From Oligoflexus sp. (GTDB lineage Bacteria > Bdellovibrionota_B > Oligoflexia > Oligoflexales > Oligoflexaceae), in contig JBGSTX010000017.1 in assembly GCA_041736305.1 (NCBI GenBank), positions 1-13,367 on the forward strand: a stretch of 13,367 nucleotides of DNA, written 5' to 3'. The translations under genes and the position numbers were made by a program. Below, in pieces: positions 3,546 to 13,301 of this stretch. The number at the start of each line of letters is the position of its first letter. Within the stretch, counting starts at the first letter, position 1. Below the pieces are notes generated by a model, which was not told the DNA's origin, searched no databases, and saw only the letters and a list, made by a program, of their open reading frames with translations.

Positions 3546-3848
3546 TCATCTCACGCAGAGTCCTTTGAGAACAACTTTCTGGTCGTAGGAGAGGAGCTTG
3601 AAGCTCGTGAGATGCTCCGTCATCACTGCCGCGATCCTGCCCGGGCACTTGCCTTGAAGCTCCTGATAGGCTTTCTCCACATAGCTTGTATCGGTCTGGA
3701 AGCTGAGGACGACAAAGTCCTCGCTGTCAGCGGTAATCCACTCGCCTTTACCTGCCGAGCTAGCATCCTGGCTACTGGCGTAGACTTGGTGAATCGAATG
3801 AGCACAGCCGGAGAGGAAGAGCATAGCGAGCATGAGGACTAATTTCAT
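3546..3848 (-). CDS. Small lipoprotein, paralog 4 of cassette (function unknown)
   Basis: 100 aa. Lipoprotein signal MKLVLMLAMLFLSG-C15. C-x29-C motif (KCPG...KGLC). AAGGG SD. Starts 3 bp after the upstream stop. Confidence 0.88.
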   Translation of the reverse strand: MKLVLMLAMLFLSGCAHSIHQVYASSQDASSAGKGEWITADSEDFVVLSFQTDTSYVEKAYQELQGKCPGRIAAVMTEHLTSFKLLSYDQKVVLKGLCVR

Positions 3849-3851
3849 GTT

Positions 3852-4175
3852 TTAACCCTTCTTCCCGTTCAAGCAATAGCCTTCCATGATCACGCCTTGG
3901 TTGCCTGCGAAACCGAGGAAGTAGTTGGTGTTTTGGTGCTTGGCGAGTATCCCTTCGATTTGGCCCTGGGGACACTGCTGCTCCAGAGCTTCGCGCGCTC
4001 GCGCTACAAATGAGTTACCAAAGGGGATCGCAAAGAAGACGAAGTCGGAAGCTGAGCTTACAATCTTCTGCTTCCTCGCCGCTGCCGGAGGAATTTGGCT
4101 GATAGAAATGGACTCCACGGTCTTGCAGCCTCCAGTAAATAGCAGGCCGCTGAGCAAAAGTAGCATTTTCTTCAT
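3852..4175 (-). CDS. Small lipoprotein, paralog 3 of cassette (function unknown)
   Basis: 107 aa. Signal MKKMLLLLSGLLFTGG-C17. C-x32-C motif (QCPQG...EGYC). ATGA overlap with the upstream gene. GAGG SD. Confidence 0.88.
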   Translation of the reverse strand: MKKMLLLLSGLLFTGGCKTVESISISQIPPAAARKQKIVSSASDFVFFAIPFGNSFVARAREALEQQCPQGQIEGILAKHQNTNYFLGFAGNQGVIMEGYCLNGKKG

Positions 4176-4570
4176 CGCTTGATTTCCTCTCTGTAGCTGG
4201 CGAGCTCACTCCACTCAGGTTCTATCGAAGCTTGGCTTTTCCGATGTGTCGTGCAATAGCCTTGCGCTGAGACTTCGCGCTTCATGAAAAAGGCTAGAAA
4301 GTAGAGTGTACGGGTATCGTGCGTGGTCACGCCGCGCACCTCGCCACCGGGGCAAGCCCCTTTCAATTTGTCAGTAAGCTGGAGGGCGAAGTCGTTATCG
4401 AAGTTAAAGCCGAGAACAATAAACTTTTCGACGCTTGCCTGAACCACTTTTTTGCGATCAGCAGGTATATTCGTCTGTGAAACGGCTTGGGTATACGTGC
4501 AGGCATTGAGTAGGGGCAGAAGCATAAGTAGAAGCGAAGCCAGGCATAGGGAGGCTCTTCGATTTTTCAT
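4172..4570 (-). CDS. Small lipoprotein, paralog 2 of cassette (function unknown)
   Basis: 132 aa. Signal MKNRR...LLPLLNA-C24. C-x32-C motif (ACPGG...QGYC) followed by a ~25-aa C-terminal tail. Confidence 0.88.
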   Translation of the reverse strand: MKNRRASLCLASLLLMLLPLLNACTYTQAVSQTNIPADRKKVVQASVEKFIVLGFNFDNDFALQLTDKLKGACPGGEVRGVTTHDTRTLYFLAFFMKREVSAQGYCTTHRKSQASIEPEWSELASYREEIKR

Positions 4571-4590
4571 GGTTCTCGCTCAGCTGAGGT

Positions 4591-5022
4591 TTACATGCAT
4601 GTGGCATCAACGCGCACGATCTGGCCCTTGACTAGCGGGTACTCCCGCGATTCGCGGATAGAGCTCACGTTGGTGAGATAGCCTGTTTTGCATTCGGCTG
4701 CCAGCCGTTCAGGGATCTGACGGGCGTAGAATTCCGAATAAACCGGAGCCCCCGTGCGTGGTCCCCACTGAAAGAGGGTAGTGTAGGCATCCATTGCTTT
4801 CCCTAGATTGCTGGCGCCTCGCGAGTTGAAGGAACGACCTATGCCACCGGCGATAGCTGCGGCTTCCTTAAGATCTACAGTCGTCTCGCTGACCATGACG
4901 CTGACAGGCCGACCTTTGCCCTTGGCATCGATATCACTCAATTGAACTTTGTAAAGCACGGCACAGCCGCTGCTGAAAAGCAGACTGAGACTGAGGCACG
5001 CGCCGACTAGCAGTCGCATCAT
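4591..5022 (-). CDS. Small lipoprotein, first and most divergent member of cassette (function unknown)
   Basis: 143 aa. Signal ...LSLLFSSG-C20. C-x30-C motif (ECKTG...DATC). AAGGGA SD at 5036-5031. Confidence 0.88.
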   Translation of the reverse strand: MMRLLVGACLSLSLLFSSGCAVLYKVQLSDIDAKGKGRPVSVMVSETTVDLKEAAAIAGGIGRSFNSRGASNLGKAMDAYTTLFQWGPRTGAPVYSEFYARQIPERLAAECKTGYLTNVSSIRESREYPLVKGQIVRVDATCM

Positions 5023-5049
5023 AGTTGGCTTCCCTTAAGTGTATAATCC

Positions 5050-5079
5050 ATTATATGGGGGATACTCGGCTGTACGCAA
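5050..5079 (-). promoter_or_regulatory. Putative sigma70 promoter of the lipoprotein cassette
   Basis: Minus strand TTGCGT (5079-5074), 18-nt spacer, perfect TATAAT (5055-5050), about 30 nt upstream of the ATG at 5022. Confidence 0.6.
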
Positions 5080-5191
5080 GGTTTTGGCAAGGACCCCAGC
5101 GAGCTGTAGCAAAGACCGACAGCCGCAGAGCCAAATACAGGCATAATTAATCAAACCTAAGAATATGGATGCGTCAGCGACCGCCATAAGA

Positions 5192-5220
5192 TGGTCATGA
5201 ATCTAGCGGTGCGCTAAGGT
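5192..5220 (+). promoter_or_regulatory. Possible promoter directly upstream of the long hairpin
   Basis: TGGTCA (5192-5197), 17-nt spacer, TAAGGT (5215-5220). Predicted start near 5227. Confidence 0.3.
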
Positions 5221-5233
5221 TCGATAGACGACT

Positions 5234-5294
5234 GCAGGTGATAAAGTTAGGGCGCGTCACCATGCGGTGGCAGCGCCCTAGCTTTATCACTTGC
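5234..5294 (+). ncRNA. Long hairpin, candidate small non-coding RNA or structured element of unknown family
   Basis: GCAGGTGATAAAGTTAGGGCGC-GTCACC atgc GGTGGC-A-GCGCCCTAGCTTTATCACTTGC. 28 pairs (25 Watson-Crick, 3 G-U), one bulged A (5272), 4-nt loop. The hairpin itself is certain; RNA-gene status is inferred. Confidence 0.5.
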
Positions 5295-5473
5295 CGCCTG
5301 AGCCTTTTCTGCTCTCTACAGAGAAGATCGAACAAGGATCTAAAGTATCATATTATCATACTCTTACAGATCACCAGTCATTTACACCAGAGACGAAACT
5401 CCTGCATTGAACACATATGAAACGAAATGACACAAGCACGCTCTCTGGCCCTAGAGACGCGGCCGAAGGCTTC

Positions 5474-5502
5474 TTGCCGGCAAAGCCCGAATAAGCTAAG
5501 GT
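5474..5502 (+). promoter_or_regulatory. Putative sigma70 promoter of the exonuclease gene
   Basis: TTGCCG (5474-5479), 17-nt spacer, TAAGGT (5497-5502). The -35 sits in the perfect palindrome TTGCCGGCAA (5474-5483). Confidence 0.45.
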
Positions 5503-5564
5503 CTAGGCATCTTTTCGGTGGCCTTGCGCGTGTGCGCTGAACGAGCCAAGAGGGTATTTTTCGC

Positions 5565-6255: not shown

Positions 6256-6306
6256 ATGACGCTCCGTCACCTGCTGCTTATGATTTGAGGGCCTTTCGAG
6301 GCCCTC
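6256..6306 (+). promoter_or_regulatory. Putative promoter plus palindrome/hairpin upstream of the carboxylase operon
   Basis: ATGACG (6256-6261), 17-nt spacer, TATGAT (6279-6284). Then GAGGGCCT-ttcg-AGGCCCTC (6287-6306), a perfect 8-bp stem with no following U-tract. Confidence 0.45.
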
Positions 6307-6353
6307 GCGTGTCCCGACTGTTTTCTGTAGATTTTCGACGAGGCTCTGTACCC

Positions 6354-7958
6354 ATGCGCATTCAATCCAAAGTGGACTGTTCGAGCGAACAATTTCGCAG
6401 CAACCATGCCTATCACCTCGCCCTTCTCGAGGACCTCCAACGCCGCCTGATGACGTATGAGCAGGGAGGGGGCCCAGCGGCGCAAGAAAACCTTAAGCGT
6501 CAAGGTAAGCTCTCACCGCGCGAACGCATTCGTCTGCTTATCGACCCTGAGAGCGAATTCCTCGAGCTTTCTACCTTGGCCGGATTCGAACTCTATGATA
6601 CCGACGTGCCCTCCGGCGGCATCGTTACGGGTATCGGCACAGTCTACGGGCGCCCCTGCATGATCGTCGCCAACGATCCCACCGTCAAGGGGGGGACCTA
6701 CTTCCCTATCACCGTTAAAAAGCATCTGCGGGCGCAGGAGATAGCCGAGCAGAACCATCTGCCTTGCATCTACCTCGTCGACTCAGGGGGAGCCTTCCTG
6801 CCGATGCAGGACGAAGTGTTTCCTGACAAGGACGACTTCGGCCGCATCTTTTTCAATCAGGCGAGGATGAGTTCGAAGGGTATCCAACAGATCGCTTCCG
6901 TCCATGGTTTCTGCACCGCCGGCGGCGCTTACATCCCGGCTATGTCCGATCAAAGCGTCATCGTCAAAGGCACGGGGACCATATTTCTCGCGGGCCCACC
7001 TCTGGTCAAGGCAGCCACGGGCGAGGAAGTGACGGCTGAAGAACTAGGTGGAGCTCGGGTTCACACCGCGACCAGTGGCGTTGCCGATCACATGGCCGAA
7101 AACGACGAGCATGCGCTGCAGATCGTGAGGCAAATCGTTCGCTACCTCGGCAAGGCTCCTAGCTCGCCAGTCAAGCTTGCAGCCCCTGAAGAGCCGCTCT
7201 ACGATTCCGAAGAACTGCTGGGCCTCGTCCCCAAAGAAGCACGTAAGGCCTACGATAGCCGCGAAATCATAGCGCGAGTGGTAGACGGTTCGCGCCTTTT
7301 TGAGTTCAAGCCGAATTATGGCACCACTCTAGTTAGCGGCTTCGCTCACATAGCGGGCATTCCCGTCGGCATCATCGCTAATAACGGCGTTCTTTTTTCC
7401 GAAAGCGCTCTCAAAGGCACCCATTTTATTGAGCTCTGCACGCAGGAGCACATTCCGCTCCTCTTTCTCCAAAACATCACCGGTTTCATCGTCGGTAAAA
7501 AATACGAGCACGGTGGCATCGCCAAGGACGGAGCGAAACTCGTTCACGCCGTGGCGAATGCGCAGGTGCCTAAGCTGACACTCATCGTCGGCGGCAGTTT
7601 CGGCGCCGGTAACTACGGGATGTGCGGCCGTGCCTACGACCCGCGTTATCTCTTCATGTGGCCGAATGCAAAAATATCTGTGATGGGCGGTGAGCAGGCC
7701 GCCGACGTCTTGGCGACGGTCAAACTCCAGCAGTTAGCGAAGCAAGGCAAAGTCCTGGGTGAAGGCGAAGTGGCGGATATTCGTCAGCCGATCCTGGCGA
7801 AGTACGAGAAAGAAAGCTCAGCCTACTATTCAAGTGCCCGGCTTTGGGACGATGGGATCATAGATCCCCGTCGCACGCGACAGGTCTTAGCGATGGCGCT
7901 AGCCAGCACGCTGCACCACTCCTGGCCCGAGACCAAGAACGGTGTCTTTCGGATGTAA
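6354..7958 (+). CDS. liuB: 3-methylcrotonyl-CoA carboxylase beta (carboxyltransferase) subunit
   Basis: MCC-type motifs [45 protein letters not shown]...[38 protein letters not shown]-terminal GVFRM. Start moved to ATG 6354 (GAGG at 6340-6343). 534 aa. Confidence 0.9.
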
Positions 7959-8025
7959 ACCGATTACGAAAGACCAGTTTCCGACTTCAATCATCGATTA
8001 ATGATTTTCTTTTCCGGGGGGTATT

Positions 8026-9828
8026 ATGAGTCAGACGAAGAGCATACGCATAGGCAATGCCGGCGGCTACTGGGGAGATGATCCAGGGGCTTTGGAGCGC
8101 CAGGTCATGGGCGGACGCCTCGATTATATCAGCATGGATTTTCTCGCCGAAATTACGATGTCCATACTCCAGAAGCAGCGTCTCAGCGATCCTAGTCTCG
8201 GCTACGCTCGCGATTTCCTGAGCATGCTCAAATCAGTCCTCCCCAAACTCATGGCAGACGGCACCAAGATAATTACGAACGCTGGCGGCGTCAATCCTCA
8301 CAGCTGCGCGGAAGCTATCGCACAGGTAGCAGAATCTCTGGGCCTCAGCCCGCGCATCGCCATCGTCTTTGGTGACGATATCCTCCCCGATCTGGCCCGC
8401 TTGCAAAGCGAAGGCATCGAGTTTGCCAATATGGAAAGCGGCGGCGATTTCGCCCATGTGCAGCATCGGATTCAAGCCGCGAACATCTACTTCGGTGCAG
8501 CTCCCGTCGTCGAGGCTCTGAAGTGGGATCCACACATCATCATCACGGGCCGCGTAACCGACACAGGAATCACCCTCGCCCCCATGATTCACGCCTTCGG
8601 CTGGTCCCTGCGCGACTGGGACAAACTCGCAGCAGGCATCGTCGCCGGTCACATCATCGAGTGCGGCTCGCAGTCGACCGGTGGTAACTTCACCGACTGG
8701 GAGAGCGTGCCGAGTTTCGACAATATCGGCTATCCGATAGTCGAGGTGGCGTCCGATGGAACTTTCTTCGTCACGAAACACGAGGGAAGTGGCGGTTTAG
8801 TGAACGTCGATACCGTCCGGGAGCAGCTCTTCTACGAGATGGGCAGTCCAGGTGCCTATATCACTCCGGATGTGGTCGCCGACTTCGGCAGCATTCAACT
8901 CGAGGCCGCTGGCAAAGATCGCGTCCGCGTATTTGGGGTGAAAGGCTTTGAGCCGACCCCACTCTACAAAGTTTCTATGGCTTACGACGAGGGCTTTAAA
9001 TCGGTTGGCTCCATTATGATCTCGGGTCCTTCGGCCCGGAAAAAGGCCGAGGCATTTGCCCGTATTTTCTGGAATCGCTGTCCAGGTCCCTTTGCCGAAA
9101 CTCTGACCGAATACGTCGGCTTCAACTCCTGCCACCGCTCGCTCGTTCAGCGCGAAGACGGCAACGAAATTCTGCTGCGCCTCGGTGCGAGAGCTATGGA
9201 AGAGCGCGATCTTAAGCTCTTTGGTAAAATGATCCCTTCCCTCATCCTCAGTGGTCCCCCCGGAGTCGCCGTCATCGGCGGCGTGCCTAAGGCGCAGAAA
9301 GTCATGAGCTACTGGCCAGCTTTAATTCCTAAATACGCTGTCCACCCCGAAATCGCACTTTTTGAAAAAGGCCAAAAAGTCGAGCAAAGGACGGTTAAAG
9401 ACACGCCGATTGGCGATTTCAAAGCTCAAGATTTACCCATGCAAAGTGCCGAACGCACGAGCAAGACGATAGCCCAGGTCTTAGCCGAGCAAACGACCAG
9501 CAAGTCGCAAAAAGCCCTCTTTGAAATAGCTCTCGCGCGCAGCGGAGACAAAGGCGACACGGCAAACATAGGTGTCATGGCCCGTGACCCTGCAGCCTAT
9601 GCGTTTCTTGAAGAGTATTTGACGGCCCAGCGAGTTAAAGACTGGTTTCAAGAACTCTGTCTCGGTAAGGTGACACGCTACGCTCTGCCTCGTTTGCAAG
9701 GCTTCAACTTCCTTCTCGAAGAATCGCTCGGCGGTGGTGGTACGAAGACTTTGCGGATCGATGCCCAAGGGAAGACTTTTGCCCAAGCCCTTTTATCGCA
9801 AAAAGTACCCTACCCTGCGCGTAGCTGA
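8026..9828 (+). CDS. atuA: Acyclic terpene utilization AtuA-family protein (DUF1446 plus C-terminal ARSGDKG domain)
   Basis: 600 aa. IRIGNAGGYWGD, DFLAEITMSIL, TNAGGVNP, TGRVTD, AGHIIECGSQSTGGNF, EQLFYE, YITPDV, ARSGDKGD.ANIGV, D.QGK. Confidence 0.92.
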   Translation: MSQTKSIRIGNAGGYWGDDPGALERQVMGGRLDYISMDFLAEITMSILQKQRLSDPSLGYARDFLSMLKSVLPKLMADGTKIITNAGGVNPHSCAEAIAQVAESLGLSPRIAIVFGDDILPDLARLQSEGIEFANMESGGDFAHVQHRIQAANIYFGAAPVVEALKWDPHIIITGRVTDTGITLAPMIHAFGWSLRDWDKLAAGIVAGHIIECGSQSTGGNFTDWESVPSFDNIGYPIVEVASDGTFFVTKHEGSGGLVNVDTVREQLFYEMGSPGAYITPDVVADFGSIQLEAAGKDRVRVFGVKGFEPTPLYKVSMAYDEGFKSVGSIMISGPSARKKAEAFARIFWNRCPGPFAETLTEYVGFNSCHRSLVQREDGNEILLRLGARAMEERDLKLFGKMIPSLILSGPPGVAVIGGVPKAQKVMSYWPALIPKYAVHPEIALFEKGQKVEQRTVKDTPIGDFKAQDLPMQSAERTSKTIAQVLAEQTTSKSQKALFEIALARSGDKGDTANIGVMARDPAAYAFLEEYLTAQRVKDWFQELCLGKVTRYALPRLQGFNFLLEESLGGGGTKTLRIDAQGKTFAQALLSQKVPYPARS

Positions 9829-9840
9829 GAGGACCGAAAG

Positions 9841-11862
9841 ATGCAGAAGCTGAAAGAATTGAAAACGCGCAGCATTCGTCGAGTTTTTATTGCGAATCGA
9901 GGCGAAATTGCCCGACGCATAGCCCTCGGTGCTCACACGATCGGTATTGAATCCGCTGCGATTTATAGCGGGAATGCGCCTCCCGCTTTTCTCGAAGGCT
10001 GGGTGCAGCACTTCATTAAAGTGCCTGAAGAGTCTCCTGCCATCTACCTCGACTCTGATCTCATGGTGCAGCTGGCCTTGCAGAGCGGCTCTGATGCAGT
10101 GCATCCAGGCTTCGGCTTTCTCTCCGAAAACGCTTCTTTCGCCGCCAAAGTCGAAGCCGCGGGCCTAGTCTGGATCGGTCCATCCCCAGCTGCGATTGAG
10201 GCTATGGCATCTAAGGCAGCTGCGCGGGAGATTGCTAAACAAGAAGGTGTTCCCGTAGTCCCCGGCATCGAGCGTCTCACTCTCGACGACAACATCGACT
10301 CTAAGCTCCCCCTCGTCAAAGGTTTCGTGCAGGAGCACGGTTTTCCTATTCTCCTGAAAGCCGCACTCGGCGGTGGTGGCAAAGGCATGCGCGTCGTCCG
10401 CAGTGAAAGTGAACTACCCGAAGCGATGCGCCGAGCCCAATCCGAGGCTCTCAACGCCTTCGGCGATGGTTCCTTGATCATCGAACGCTACGTAGAGTAT
10501 CCGCGGCACGTCGAGGTGCAGATTCTAGGCGATAGCTACGGCACCGTTTACGCGCTGAGTGATCGCGACTGCTCGGTCCAGCGACGTCATCAGAAAATTA
10601 TCGAAGAGGCTCCAGCGCCTCAGTTGGGGCCAAAGACCCGCTCCAGCATGCACGAAGCTGCGGTACGCTTGGCTCAATCGGTAGGCTACAGTTCGGCTGG
10701 AACCGTAGAATTTTTGGTGGACTGGTCGGAAGACAAACGACAGCTCCCTGAGCAATCTTTCTATTTCCTAGAAATGAATACGCGCCTGCAGGTGGAACAC
10801 CCAGTGACCGAAGAGGTGCTCAACGAAGATCTGGTCGTCTGGCAGTTCCGTATCGCCCAGGGCGAAGCCATAGCCGATCGTCTCAATCTCGAACCGCAGG
10901 GCCACAGCATCGAACTGCGGCTCTATGCCGAAGATGCAGCGCACGGCTTTTTGCCGGCCCCAGGCCCGGTACATGGATTTCTGCCGGCGAATCTCCCCGG
11001 AATTCGCTGGGAAGTAGGTATCGATGCGATCGATGAGATCACCGCGCGCTTCGATCCCATGATCTGTAAACTGATCAGCACCGGCTCTGATCGGGCCCAG
11101 GCGATAGCTCGGCTCGAGGACGCTCTCAAAACAACCGTCCTAGCCTTACCGATCAGCAATGTCGCCTTTCTTCTAAGTGTGCTCCGACATCCCGCATTTG
11201 CCTTGGCAGCGCCCAGCACGCGTTTCATCGAAGATCACCGCAGCGAACTAGACGCTTGGATCGCTGGCGAAAGACAGCGTTGGGAAGCTCTCGTCCCCTC
11301 CCTCTGTCCCAACGACAGCCCAGCCGCAAGCGGAAGCAGAACCGAGCTCTCTGAGCTCACACAGCGTATTTTCCGCAAAAAACCCCGTAACGAAGATCTG
11401 CGGGACATCATGCTGGGAGAAACGCATAGCGTAGCCGTTCCCAGACGCTTTCCGCAGCGCCATAGCCGGGTGGGTCGCGGCTTATTCCGGCACAACGCCG
11501 GCTGGCAGAGCTTTGTGTTCTGTCAAAGTTCTTTTCCTGGTGGCTCTTTGCAATGGGTAGCGATAGACGGTCATCCTTTTATTCGTCAGAACAAAAGCGA
11601 TGAGCTTCTGGCTGCGGCGCGCACCCAGGCCAGCGGTAGCGCGATCAGCGCTCCGGTTCCAGGCAAAATTGTGAAGATCCTAGTGAAGGCTAAGGATGCC
11701 GTCCAGGAGCGACAGGTCGTCCTTATCCTCGAATCGATGAAAATGGAGTTTGAAGTGCAAGCCTCACGTGCGGGTCATATAGGTACTGTTTTGGTGCAAG
11801 CAGGGCAGCAGGTTCAAGCTGACGAGCAACTGGTGATTTGGGAGCAAGCACCGGACACTTGA
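9841..11862 (+). CDS. liuD: Biotin carboxylase-BCCP alpha subunit of acyl-CoA (probably methylcrotonyl-CoA) carboxylase
   Basis: 673 aa. IANRGEIA, HPGFGFLSEN, GGGGKGMR, RDCSVQRRHQK, EMNTRLQVEHPVTE, RLYAED, and a C-terminal biotinyl domain with SAPVPGKI and LESMKME. Substrate inferred from the neighbouring MCC beta gene. Confidence 0.88.
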   Translation: MQKLKELKTRSIRRVFIANRGEIARRIALGAHTIGIESAAIYSGNAPPAFLEGWVQHFIKVPEESPAIYLDSDLMVQLALQSGSDAVHPGFGFLSENASFAAKVEAAGLVWIGPSPAAIEAMASKAAAREIAKQEGVPVVPGIERLTLDDNIDSKLPLVKGFVQEHGFPILLKAALGGGGKGMRVVRSESELPEAMRRAQSEALNAFGDGSLIIERYVEYPRHVEVQILGDSYGTVYALSDRDCSVQRRHQKIIEEAPAPQLGPKTRSSMHEAAVRLAQSVGYSSAGTVEFLVDWSEDKRQLPEQSFYFLEMNTRLQVEHPVTEEVLNEDLVVWQFRIAQGEAIADRLNLEPQGHSIELRLYAEDAAHGFLPAPGPVHGFLPANLPGIRWEVGIDAIDEITARFDPMICKLISTGSDRAQAIARLEDALKTTVLALPISNVAFLLSVLRHPAFALAAPSTRFIEDHRSELDAWIAGERQRWEALVPSLCPNDSPAASGSRTELSELTQRIFRKKPRNEDLRDIMLGETHSVAVPRRFPQRHSRVGRGLFRHNAGWQSFVFCQSSFPGGSLQWVAIDGHPFIRQNKSDELLAAARTQASGSAISAPVPGKIVKILVKAKDAVQERQVVLILESMKMEFEVQASRAGHIGTVLVQAGQQVQADEQLVIWEQAPDT

Positions 11863-12029: not shown

Positions 12030-12968
12030 ATGCCATTTCAGACCTTCATGATTGAATCAGGGTTTAAAGTTTTGGCAATGGCACGCCTTGGCTCATGCGA
12101 ATACAGCATCGTTCTATATCTGATGAATGCCGCCGTTACGGGAATGCATGAACTTGTTACGACTGAAAAAGAATTTGCTTCGCTGATCGGTTATCAGGAT
12201 GAACAGCTGCAAGAGGCGATGCAAAACCTCATTCATCGTAATATTATTCACGTCAAAGTTCATGATCAGCATCAGCCGAAGGGTCGCCAATCGTTGCGAA
12301 TCGGCATGCAGTATAATGTTCATCTTTGGCAACTCGACTTTGACAAAGATGTCACCAGCCACGATGCGGTTGTTTTTCCCTTTAAACGTGAGTCTAACGT
12401 TCACTATCTGCAGCCTCGCGAACCCGATCTCACCCCGACCATTCGCCATCCGACCCCGACCTGGAAACGTATTCTCGACACCTATCTCGAAGGACGCGAC
12501 GACATTTCAGAGCAGGACATGCAAAACGCGGAGAGAGATGCCAATATTCTCGTCGACACGCACCCAGTCGATCAAGTGCTCATCATGCTGAGACACTTTG
12601 GCAATCGCGTGCCTACCCTCAGTCTGCTGGCCAGCGCCTGGCAGCATTATCAGACTCTCTTTGAAGAAGAGACCGACAAAGTCGATATTCAAGAGGCTCG
12701 TCACAAGCACATGGAAATGGATCATCGGCTCCGTGATGCGGCTGAGCTTCTCCTCCAGCAGCGGGATCAATTGAAGCTCAATGAGGAAGAGGCGGGTGTC
12801 TTAGATATTCTCTTCAAGCATCGTCATCCACGCCGCCAGCTCTTCTGGGCTTATCAATCACGAGGCCGCTATCCCAATCTCAAAGATTTCTTTGAGCAGA
12901 ACAGCTTCCTCATGTTGCCCGTAACCTCGTCGGGAATGGTTTTTAAACGGCGCCCTCACCAAGACTGA
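12030..12968 (+). CDS. Hypothetical protein with probable N-terminal winged helix-turn-helix domain
   Basis: 312 aa, strong SD TAAGGAG (12018-12024). The N-terminal pattern L..CEYSIVLYL...TTEKEFASLIGY..EQLQEAMQNLIHRNII fits a wHTH (T..E.A..IG......A...L...II). The remainder looks helical. Confidence 0.8.
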   Translation: MPFQTFMIESGFKVLAMARLGSCEYSIVLYLMNAAVTGMHELVTTEKEFASLIGYQDEQLQEAMQNLIHRNIIHVKVHDQHQPKGRQSLRIGMQYNVHLWQLDFDKDVTSHDAVVFPFKRESNVHYLQPREPDLTPTIRHPTPTWKRILDTYLEGRDDISEQDMQNAERDANILVDTHPVDQVLIMLRHFGNRVPTLSLLASAWQHYQTLFEEETDKVDIQEARHKHMEMDHRLRDAAELLLQQRDQLKLNEEEAGVLDILFKHRHPRRQLFWAYQSRGRYPNLKDFFEQNSFLMLPVTSSGMVFKRRPHQD

Positions 12969-13004
12969 AGGCAAAAGCCAAAGGCCAATGAAGGAATGAT
13001 TATC

Positions 13005-13301
13005 ATGATGCAGCGGCTTCTCCTATGCTTCAGCATGTCGTTTTTTCTCTGCTTCGGACTTGCCTGTCGAACCGCAGCAAGTGGCAGTGAGACGCAGATG
13101 CTTGATAACCCTGCCTACGATGGATCGGCGGAATCTCTTGACTCGCTTCCGGATTGCAGCCCCGAGTCGCTAGGTACCCTTTTTTGGGTGAGAGAGATCA
13201 AAACGGGTTTTGAGTGCATGACGGGCACGGGCTGGACCATTCGCAGCTTTAAGAGTCCTGACGATGAGAGCGCTGCGTCACCGGCCAGAGTTGTCGACTA
13301 G
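13005..13301 (+). CDS. Small putative lipoprotein with LPxC...G...V...C...W module
   Basis: Signal peptide ending FGLA-C, low-complexity linker, then LPDCSPESLGTLFWVREIKTGFECMTGTGW. ATG 13005 is best spaced from AAGGA (12991-12995); 12996 is the alternative start. Confidence 0.72.
   Translation: MMQRLLLCFSMSFFLCFGLACRTAASGSETQMLDNPAYDGSAESLDSLPDCSPESLGTLFWVREIKTGFECMTGTGWTIRSFKSPDDESAASPARVVD

Follow-up and report, generated by a model that had tools for sequence, protein, structure and literature searches.

A Bdellovibrionota operon of diverged putative lipoprotein paralogs with a predicted YbjQ/RcsF-class fold: a candidate hetero-oligomeric envelope module

An Oligoflexus sp. genome (GenBank assembly GCA_041736305.1) carries a cassette of four consecutive genes, here called A, B, C and D, which encode diverged paralogous proteins with the sequence signature of small lipoproteins. 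The genes lie at positions 3546-5022 of contig JBGSTX010000017.1. The whole of this contig, 13,367 nucleotides long, is the window analysed here, and the assembly to which it belongs comprises 5.0 Mb in 392 contigs and is 92.7% complete. The cassette is a real, unannotated family of Bdellovibrionota that by its predicted fold falls within a known fold class, and its organisation is undescribed for that class. The reading preferred here, which we regard as evenly poised, is that the cassette is a self-contained operon of Bdellovibrionota (mainly Oligoflexia, by label) whose products, lipoproteins of the YbjQ/DUF74/RcsF fold, assemble as a membrane-anchored hetero-oligomer that serves as a non-enzymatic module of the cell envelope.

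Among small lipoproteins of the outer membrane, the YbjQ, RcsF and Bor types are common, and most have no known biochemical role. Work on them has been confined almost entirely to enterobacteria and to genes that occur singly. If the preferred reading is true, the cassette would show plainly how gene duplication can make a homo-oligomeric fold hetero-oligomeric, and would bring to light a new envelope component in a phylum that has received little study.

The cassette and its products

Calling of open reading frames (ORFs) in the window places the four genes side by side and co-oriented on the minus strand.

Gene A: 4591-5022, minus strand, 143-residue putative lipoprotein precursor with lipobox Cys20 and conserved Cys111/Cys142; first in the cassette
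Gene B: 4172-4570, minus strand, 132-residue putative lipoprotein precursor with lipobox Cys24 and Cys73/Cys106; the canonical family member
Gene C: 3852-4175, minus strand, 107-residue putative lipoprotein precursor with lipobox Cys17 and Cys68/Cys101; an extra B-like paralog
Gene D: 3546-3848, minus strand, 100-residue putative lipoprotein precursor with lipobox Cys15 and Cys68/Cys98; last in the cassette

An initial annotation of this DNA had described four co-oriented genes of 143, 132, 107 and 100 residues, and the ORF list agrees, as it does for the distances between A and B, B and C, and C and D (20, -4 and 3 bp, respectively). Genes B and C share 4 nt (ATGA), in which C starts and B stops. 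Purine-rich stretches that resemble Shine-Dalgarno sequences can be read in the sequence 5' of the starts of A, C and D, and a weak one precedes the start of B.

Each product begins with a leader of 14-23 residues, which has a basic start and a hydrophobic core and ends in a lipobox (SSGC20 in A, LNAC24 in B, GGC17 in C and LSGC15 in D). The lipobox cysteine is invariant across all aligned orthologs of the four proteins (alignments of 32 sequences for A, 31 for B, 12 for C and 30 for D). Judged by pattern alone, with [LVI][ASTVI][GAS]C as the test pattern and its cysteine as residue +1, A, B, C and D are all putative lipoproteins.

Besides the lipid cysteine, each mature chain contains exactly two cysteines, separated by 30, 32, 32 and 29 residues in A to D. 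These spacings had been proposed from the outset and are borne out by the translations. The same is true of the short strings that had been picked out as common to the set: C(P/K)xG, (G/A)xC, the hydrophobic segments KFIVLGF, DFVFFAI and DFVVLSF, and the strings of the hairpin tips can all be found, except that D has CPG in place of C(P/K)xG and is thus one residue shorter there. Around this shared frame, each subtype has features of its own. Protein A carries an insertion of about 40 residues, with two helices, between its second strand and a conserved LFQxGPRTG motif. Protein B is marked by the motifs SVSxTxIP, LGFNFDNDY, CPxGxVxG and GYC and by an acidic C-terminal tail of about 26 residues, and D by CxHSIHxV, YVDxAY and TSxGFxSW.

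The context of the cysteine pair was likewise said to be common to all four proteins, and the pair is indeed invariant in every subtype, across 149 sequences of the B/C/D family and 32 of A. In A, the invariant cysteines are C1, C92 and C123 of the mature chain (32 orthologs). We infer a structural disulfide between the two conserved cysteines. The window's genome appears to have a disulfide-forming system of the VKOR-fusion type, as VKOR and a DsbA-like Thioredoxin_4 domain occur in one open frame of 426 residues (G000:C109:9153-10325, plus strand), and no DsbB was found in this genome. The presence of this frame makes periplasmic disulfide formation plausible.

Paralogy and history of the subtypes

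On sequence comparison, B, C and D are unambiguous paralogs, and A is a distant paralog of the three. BLASTP relates B to C (E 3e-16), C to D (E 9e-15) and B to D (E 3e-10), at identities of 25-29%, and detects no similarity between A and B (E 5.4). A comparison of profiles with hhalign, using 32 mature A sequences and 73 mature B/C/D sequences, gives a probability of 96.5% and an E-value of 7.3e-10 over 95 columns. The resulting alignment matches the N-terminal strands, the helix before the first cysteine, both cysteines and the last two strands. In addition, the A-type ORF weakly matches a hidden Markov model (HMM) built from three B/C/D sequences in 9 loci (E 1e-6 to 5e-3, among 476 ORFs). 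Because of the hhalign relation and these weak matches, the four proteins can be placed in one superfamily, with A as the outlier. The original suggestion of four paralogs of one fold is thus upheld by BLASTP for B, C and D, by hhalign for A, and by the identical top structural matches of the A and B models described below.

A maximum-likelihood tree of the 73 B/C/D sequences, which is based on few columns and rooted at the midpoint, resolves groups for D (100/98), C (96/93) and B (95/77), and splits B and C together from D at 100/98. By this tree, B, C and D are distinct subtypes of old standing. Within the twelve four-gene cassettes, the B copies form one well-supported clade (100/98) and the D copies another (100/100). 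Protein C is confined to one lineage, consisting of most of the window's genus plus one further family (f13), and it branches on a long branch beside all B sequences, outside the B clade of the four-gene cassettes. It may have arisen recently as a duplicate of B and evolved fast, or it may be an ancient copy that was lost elsewhere, and the tree does not choose between these two histories. One locus from the window's genus (L017, genome G010) has the three-gene form A-B-D, and its B and D group with other families in the tree. This placement may mean that the cassette was transferred horizontally, or it may stem from faulty binning.

Distribution and gene order

The window's genome contains no further copies of the cassette genes. 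Within the phylum, the B/C/D profile matches 41 of 131 genomes (29 of 83 among those of high quality) and, in a set of relatives, 19 of 41. Two or three matches occur in each carrier genome, save that in one a contig end leaves a single match and in another the two matches fall on different contigs. Loci were typed ORF by ORF in 32 of the 41 carrier genomes, the window included, the other nine not having been fetched. Twelve of these loci have the order A-B-C-D, 18 have A-B-D, two are cut by contig ends, and none has any other order.

A motif scan with the B alignment across 185,579 species genomes returned 58 loci, of which 39 are A-B-D and 8 are A-B-C-D. A further 10 are cut by contig ends and consistent with the same order, and in the last one A and B share a single frame. 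This second set overlaps the phylum set (Oligoflexus tunisiensis, for example, is in both), and so the two are not independent. Genes A, B and D are kept together in the same order in all 30 complete loci of the phylum set and in 47 of 48 in the scan set, the 48th being the locus with A and B in one frame. Gene A always comes first among the loci examined, and many gene junctions are 4-nt overlaps when the coordinates of the longest ORFs are used. The same scan of contigs with protein C alone recovered no relative, in contrast to the alignment-based scan.

The prediction that the genes would form a conserved cassette, and would not occur as singletons, is therefore supported by a fixed order in every complete locus inspected. 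The prediction of a four-subunit system, drawn from the four genes of this window, needs to be revised for the family at large. The widespread form is A-B-D, and C is restricted by lineage (12 of 30 complete loci in the phylum genomes and 8 of 47 in the species-genome scan). On the evidence of these gene orders, the common form of the cassette is A-B-D, and the four-gene form is a local elaboration of what would be a three-subunit system.

Flanking genes vary by lineage and include those for a PilT-like ATPase, IF-3, PrkA, PgpA and thioredoxin, among others. No conserved neighbour was found among 39 flanking ORFs of 9 loci. As the flanks differ between lineages, the conserved unit is the cassette alone. 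The records of the scan are labelled as Oligoflexus, Oligoflexales, Silvanigrellaceae, Bdellovibrio/Pseudobdellovibrionaceae or Bacteriovorax metagenome-assembled genomes (MAGs), or bear vague labels such as 'Proteobacteria'. All taxa named in these labels are placed by NCBI in the phylum Bdellovibrionota; one 'Polynucleobacter' label is probably a binning or labelling error. In the window's own genus, the cassette is present in 8 of 13 genomes. Oligoflexus tunisiensis Shr3 is the sole cultured strain among the carriers found by the scan, and the existence of this cultured carrier makes the idea testable.

The locus with A and B in one frame (L070:1979-2845, plus strand) comes from a MAG labelled Bdellovibrionales. 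Its open frame spans 289 codons with no stop between the two genes, and B retains its own start and signal peptide. It may be a natural read-through or fusion, or a sequencing error.

Predicted fold

An AlphaFold2 model of B, computed from the 149-sequence alignment for 87 residues with the acidic tail removed, reached a mean predicted local distance difference test (pLDDT) of 93.4 and a predicted template-modelling score (pTM) of 0.77. It consists of strands at 2-9 and 19-29, a helix at 40-49, and strands at 53-67 and 72-85. The topology of the domain is thus predicted to be beta-beta-alpha-beta-beta, which replaces the beta-alpha-beta-beta arrangement envisaged at first. The model of A (32 sequences; pLDDT 72.6) has the order E-E-H-H-H-E-E, with the outer elements of B plus the two helices of the insertion.

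In exhaustive structural searches with VIA, the A and B models retrieved the same three chains at the top of their lists, all of them DUF74/YbjQ structures (3qkb, 1y2i and 2gtc). For B, the respective Z-scores were 7.7, 6.4 and 6.2, over 72-78 of 87 residues at a root-mean-square deviation of 2.9-3.1 A, and for A they were 6.7, 6.0 and 5.9; since all are below 8, the match is read as a common fold class and not as homology. The choice of the same three chains by two independent models speaks for a common fold of A and B. The YbjQ/RcsF-type fold that had been suggested for these proteins therefore stands in part, in that the best VIA matches are of this kind (Z 7.7, with RcsF at about 5), and Z-scores below 8 limit it to resemblance.

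Assembly of the subunits

The proposal of a heteromer was examined by predicting the four-chain complex A+B+C+D, with a separate ortholog alignment for each chain and with B as the scored partner. Three runs gave complex scores of 0.68, 0.63 and 0.66 (median 0.66), against 0.14 for the best of three controls. In the tool's own calibration, 116 of 157 solved complexes and 2 of 215 mismatched pairs attained the mark for this score. At least 97% of contacts are common to the runs, and the partner has a pLDDT of at least 71. In the models, A places its N-terminal strand (1-16) against strand 3 of B (50-63), and B in turn places its own (1-14) against strands 3 and 1 of C (54-64 and 5-11, respectively). 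The confident contacts thus run head-to-tail in gene order, A onto B and B onto C. As the prediction passed its controls (0.66 versus 0.14), the heteromer that had been proposed gains support that is real but moderate: A, B, D and, where it is present, C probably form a hetero-oligomer.

If so, the mechanism could be as follows. Short gaps and ATGA overlaps would cause the subunits to be made in a fixed order and in a near-fixed ratio. Each mature chain would be a single beta-beta-alpha-beta-beta domain that starts directly at the lipidated cysteine, without a linker, and one disulfide would probably staple this domain by joining the cysteine after the helix to the cysteine that ends the last strand. 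The N-terminal strand of one subunit would pair with the third strand of the next, in gene order. With no linker between the lipid cysteine and the domain, and with the joints made by the first strand, the assembly would sit flat against the membrane. Its probable location is the periplasmic side of the outer membrane, because none of the four proteins has Asp at position +2. This sorting signal is an E. coli rule, and it may not hold in this host. The likeliest role would be in the cell envelope, as a module without enzymatic activity that serves structure or sensing. A more detailed picture is possible and is offered tentatively: a lineage-specific, YbjQ-like ring or arc of three or four different paralogs, assembled in gene order with lipid anchors at the joint strands, lying flat on the outer membrane and leaving its hairpins free for the bilayer or a partner.

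A number of observations weigh against this reading. Some concern the complex itself. D contacts B through only four residues, all of them in its first strand, and contacts are reported for partner B alone. The complex score is the model's own confidence, and four chains with custom alignments differ from the set on which the tool was calibrated. Paralogs of a fold that forms homo-pentamers may have been packed together from the model's memory of such structures, in which case the pass reflects likeness. Other observations concern the fold and the lipid anchors. At E <= 0.001, Foldseek returned no PDB match for either model and no BFVD match for that of B, and VIA Z-scores below 8 are, by the tool's own note, what the best match typically reaches for models that have no true relative. 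When the cassette profiles were aligned by hhalign with 17 YbjQ_1 sequences of the phylum, the probabilities were 0.2-0.3% (0.3% for the A alignment). The lipoboxes of A (SSGC) and C (TGGC) are non-canonical at position -3. Lastly, no evidence favours a specific physiological role, and 90 of the 131 phylum genomes are without the cassette, including 5 of the 13 from the window's genus (72-90% complete). It follows from its absence in these 90 genomes that the cassette is accessory rather than core.

The alternative that survives best, although we consider it unlikely, is that the genes encode independent lipoproteins, which are co-transcribed and paralogous and do not bind each other, each with its own or a redundant role, in the manner of DUF1471 paralogs or of single Bor- or RcsF-type proteins. 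Such a situation would be in keeping with the fold class, which includes monomers (RcsF and YahO) as well as families with many paralogs, according to PMC4092069. The small number of D residues in contact with B fits independence too, and the predicted complex, being a model, may show four same-fold paralogs packed artefactually. However, redundant copies would be expected to be lost or shuffled over time, and these subtypes diverged long ago. Instead, A, B and D have been retained together in a fixed order in 30 of 30 and 47 of 48 complete loci, the genome has no dispersed copies, and the complex score is 0.66, against 0.14 for the best control.

A less probable alternative starts from the hairpins between the third and fourth strands. 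In B, the tip of this hairpin (64-74, LYFLAFFM) is strongly hydrophobic, as are the tips of the other subtypes, and it lies outside the interfaces described above. Because the tips are outside the confident contacts, they are free for another partner or for the membrane. The lipoproteins could be accessory subunits that dock through their hairpins on a larger envelope machine or an outer-membrane protein (OMP) whose gene lies elsewhere, in the way that RcsF associates with BamA and OMPs. The resemblance of the models to the RcsF fold, weak as it is (Z 4.8-5.1 for B and 4.5 for A), points in the same direction, and complexes of RcsF with BamA and OMPs have been reported. Yet no conserved neighbour gene points to a partner, and the four cysteines and the long linker that characterise RcsF are missing. 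Docking of this kind would in any case extend the hetero-oligomer reading and is compatible with it.

Finally, it is very improbable that the proteins are periplasmic binders of metals or small ligands, with the cysteine pair or the acidic FDNDY loop of B as the ligand site in place of a disulfide: the pair is invariant, the FDND loop is conserved in the B type, and PMC4092069 includes an archaeal selenium-binding protein of the same fold and a prediction that YbjQ binds metals, but the acidic loop is specific to its subtype (C has IPFGxSF, D xxDTxYVD and A FQxGPRTG in its place), genes for metal resistance or transport are not consistently nearby, and exported cysteines about 30 residues apart, in a host with a VKOR/DsbA-like system, fit a structural disulfide better.

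Family searches

The preferred reading, that of a membrane-anchored hetero-oligomer, concerns proteins that standard resources do not recognise. Searches of Pfam and NCBIfam gave nothing for A, B and C at E <= 1, and for D only sub-threshold matches, mostly to its signal peptide. PADLOC had no match for the four proteins, and PHROGs gave only two (E 0.05-0.07), both on the signal peptide of D. Sequence searches of the PDB, with single sequences as well as profiles, returned nothing below E 0.17. Literature searches, whose coverage leaves out subscription journals, found no description of either the lipoprotein family or the cassette.

A word-indexed search with C returned 15 proteins, including C itself, at 61-80% identity, one of which is a 'hypothetical protein' of Oligoflexus tunisiensis. 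Two of these relatives bear automatic JGI names (YajG and CsgG), which this analysis does not support. A broader view comes from an exhaustive HMM search with the B/C/D profile against 1.84 billion cluster representatives (50% identity), which matched 287 representatives at E <= 0.001, 131 of them also at E <= 1e-10, so that the family is a small one. Lengths among the best 150 of these 287 range from 64 to 202 residues, and so none of those 150 is a fused form longer than 202 residues. When 60 of the best 150 were scanned against Pfam (E <= 0.1), they showed no shared family and no match at the cut-off. The family deserves a Pfam entry of its own.

The longest of the 150, P0082 (202 residues), has a B-type domain without strand 1 and without a lipobox, behind a coiled-coil-like segment of 130 residues. 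It looks like a chimera of assembly or gene calling, not a true fusion.

Surroundings of the cassette

In the window, the cassette is flanked downstream by an amino-acid ATP-binding cassette (ABC) transporter and upstream of gene A by a divergent gene for an exonuclease of the RNase_T family. The region between the latter and gene A is listed here.

Intergenic region: 5023..5564, no strand assigned, 542 bp between gene A and the RNase_T-family gene, without a long ORF that belongs to a family

This region presumably holds the promoter of the cassette. It also contains a strong hairpin at 5234-5294, upstream of A, with arms of 22 nt that are 91% complementary and a loop of 17 nt. The hairpin folds at -43.5 kcal/mol (z -5.5 relative to shuffled sequences), is unique in the genome and is not followed by a run of T. 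We infer that the hairpin region belongs to the cassette. Rfam gave no match at E <= 1, the hairpin included, no transfer RNA was found, and sites resembling promoters and terminators were no commoner than in shuffled sequences.

Further along the plus strand, positions 6285-11862 encode a Carboxyl_trans carboxyltransferase, a protein of the AtuA family and a biotin carboxylase that carries a biotinyl domain. This cluster is an acyl-CoA carboxylase set of the type found in acyclic terpene and leucine catabolism, and has no relation to the cassette. Next come a 312-residue ORF without a Pfam match (12030-12968, plus strand) and then a 101-residue ORF (12996-13301, plus strand), the leader of which (...FLCFGLAC) resembles a lipoprotein signal. 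Searches within the window's own genome found no relation of either ORF to the cassette.

Comparison with known systems

Some other small proteins besides YbjQ and RcsF had been named at the start as possible likenesses or were brought up by the searches, and they are compared here before the two closest. The first is the Bor lipoprotein of phage lambda (of the Bor/Iss serum-resistance lipoproteins; Lambda_Bor, PF06291), which by eye has a size and a linear layout similar to those of the cassette proteins: a lipobox cysteine, a short strand and then a hydrophobic one that ends in Gly, a cysteine with GG after it, a long hydrophobic hairpin, and YC at the C-terminus. This likeness did not withstand searching. 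The Lambda_Bor HMM matched none of the four proteins at E <= 1 (lambda Bor itself scored E 1.9e-30), and when the family profile was compared with Bor by hhalign, nothing but the signal peptide was aligned (29 columns, probability 47.6%), Bor having been used as a single sequence since 80 fetched copies were at least 97% identical and allowed no fair profile. With no match in BFVD either, kinship with Bor was rejected as unsupported. The TRL-like proteins, which had been mentioned alongside Bor, gave no match, and were covered only within scans of the whole of Pfam.

DUF6567 (PF20205) is the nearest named cluster to A and B in a language-model atlas (0.89 each), where a value below 0.9 counts as a lead only. 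Its HMM found no match in the window's genome (E <= 1) and none above the cut-off in any of the 131 phylum genomes, and the atlas similarity stays no more than a lead. One sub-threshold match to DUF6567 occurs in a 319-residue open frame of another genome of the phylum set (G122).

The DUF1471 proteins (YhcN/BhsA/SrfN), periplasmic proteins of stress and biofilm, are not known to be lipoproteins, and their genes are dispersed and not known to be gathered in one cassette. The Pfam scan gave no DUF1471 match for the four cassette proteins, and the structural match to SrfN (2ma8) had VIA Z-scores of 4.1 for B and 4.6 for A. According to PMC4092069, DUF1471 belongs to the same fold class, with several paralogs per genome, and its members are without cysteines, unlike the cassette proteins.

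The DUF74/YbjQ family (UPF0145; YbjQ_1, PF01906) comes closest in structure, as its beta-beta-alpha-beta-beta core resembles the one predicted for the cassette domain, nearly the whole of which is spanned by the match. YbjQ proteins are cytoplasmic homo-oligomers that are not known to be lipidated, and the cassette proteins differ from them in being putative lipoproteins of three or four distinct subtypes. The YbjQ_1 HMM had no match in a six-frame search of the window's genome, versus 8 of the 131 genomes of the phylum. The 17 YbjQ_1 stretches compared from the phylum lack both of the invariant cysteines of the cassette proteins, and their own invariant columns are a Gly and an Arg. Homology to YbjQ_1 at the sequence level was rejected, as the HMM search and the profile-profile comparison were both negative. 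In two genomes of the phylum, three YbjQ_1 domains stand in tandem in one frame of 436-444 residues (G064:C4:2929-3858 and G089:C123:63033-63965), and several others have two adjacent YbjQ_1 matches. These tandem domains indicate that the same fold has been duplicated in tandem in another, unrelated family. PMC4092069 assigns a common fold to RcsF, DUF1471, YbjQ, DUF74 and an archaeal selenium-binding protein, and describes YbjQ, DUF74 and the selenium-binding protein as pentamers.

RcsF, a stress sensor of enterobacteria, is comparable in type: it is a small outer-membrane lipoprotein whose alpha+beta domain is stabilised by disulfides and falls in the fold class predicted for the cassette. 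VIA scores the structural match low (Z 5.1 for B with 9biy chain B and 4.8 with 2y1b, and 4.5 for A), and RcsF (PF16358) was not matched in the Pfam hmmscan of the four proteins (E <= 1) or of the 60 representatives (E <= 0.1). The hallmarks of RcsF are four cysteines in two non-consecutive disulfides and a long disordered N-terminal linker. The cassette chains have one cysteine pair in place of these two disulfides, and no long linker, as strand 1 begins at residue 2. RcsF is also the product of a single gene that acts with the Rcs phosphorelay, whereas the cassette comprises three or four paralogs in one operon. In the cassette, the predicted fold class takes the form of an obligate set of three or four diverged paralogs, kept in order.

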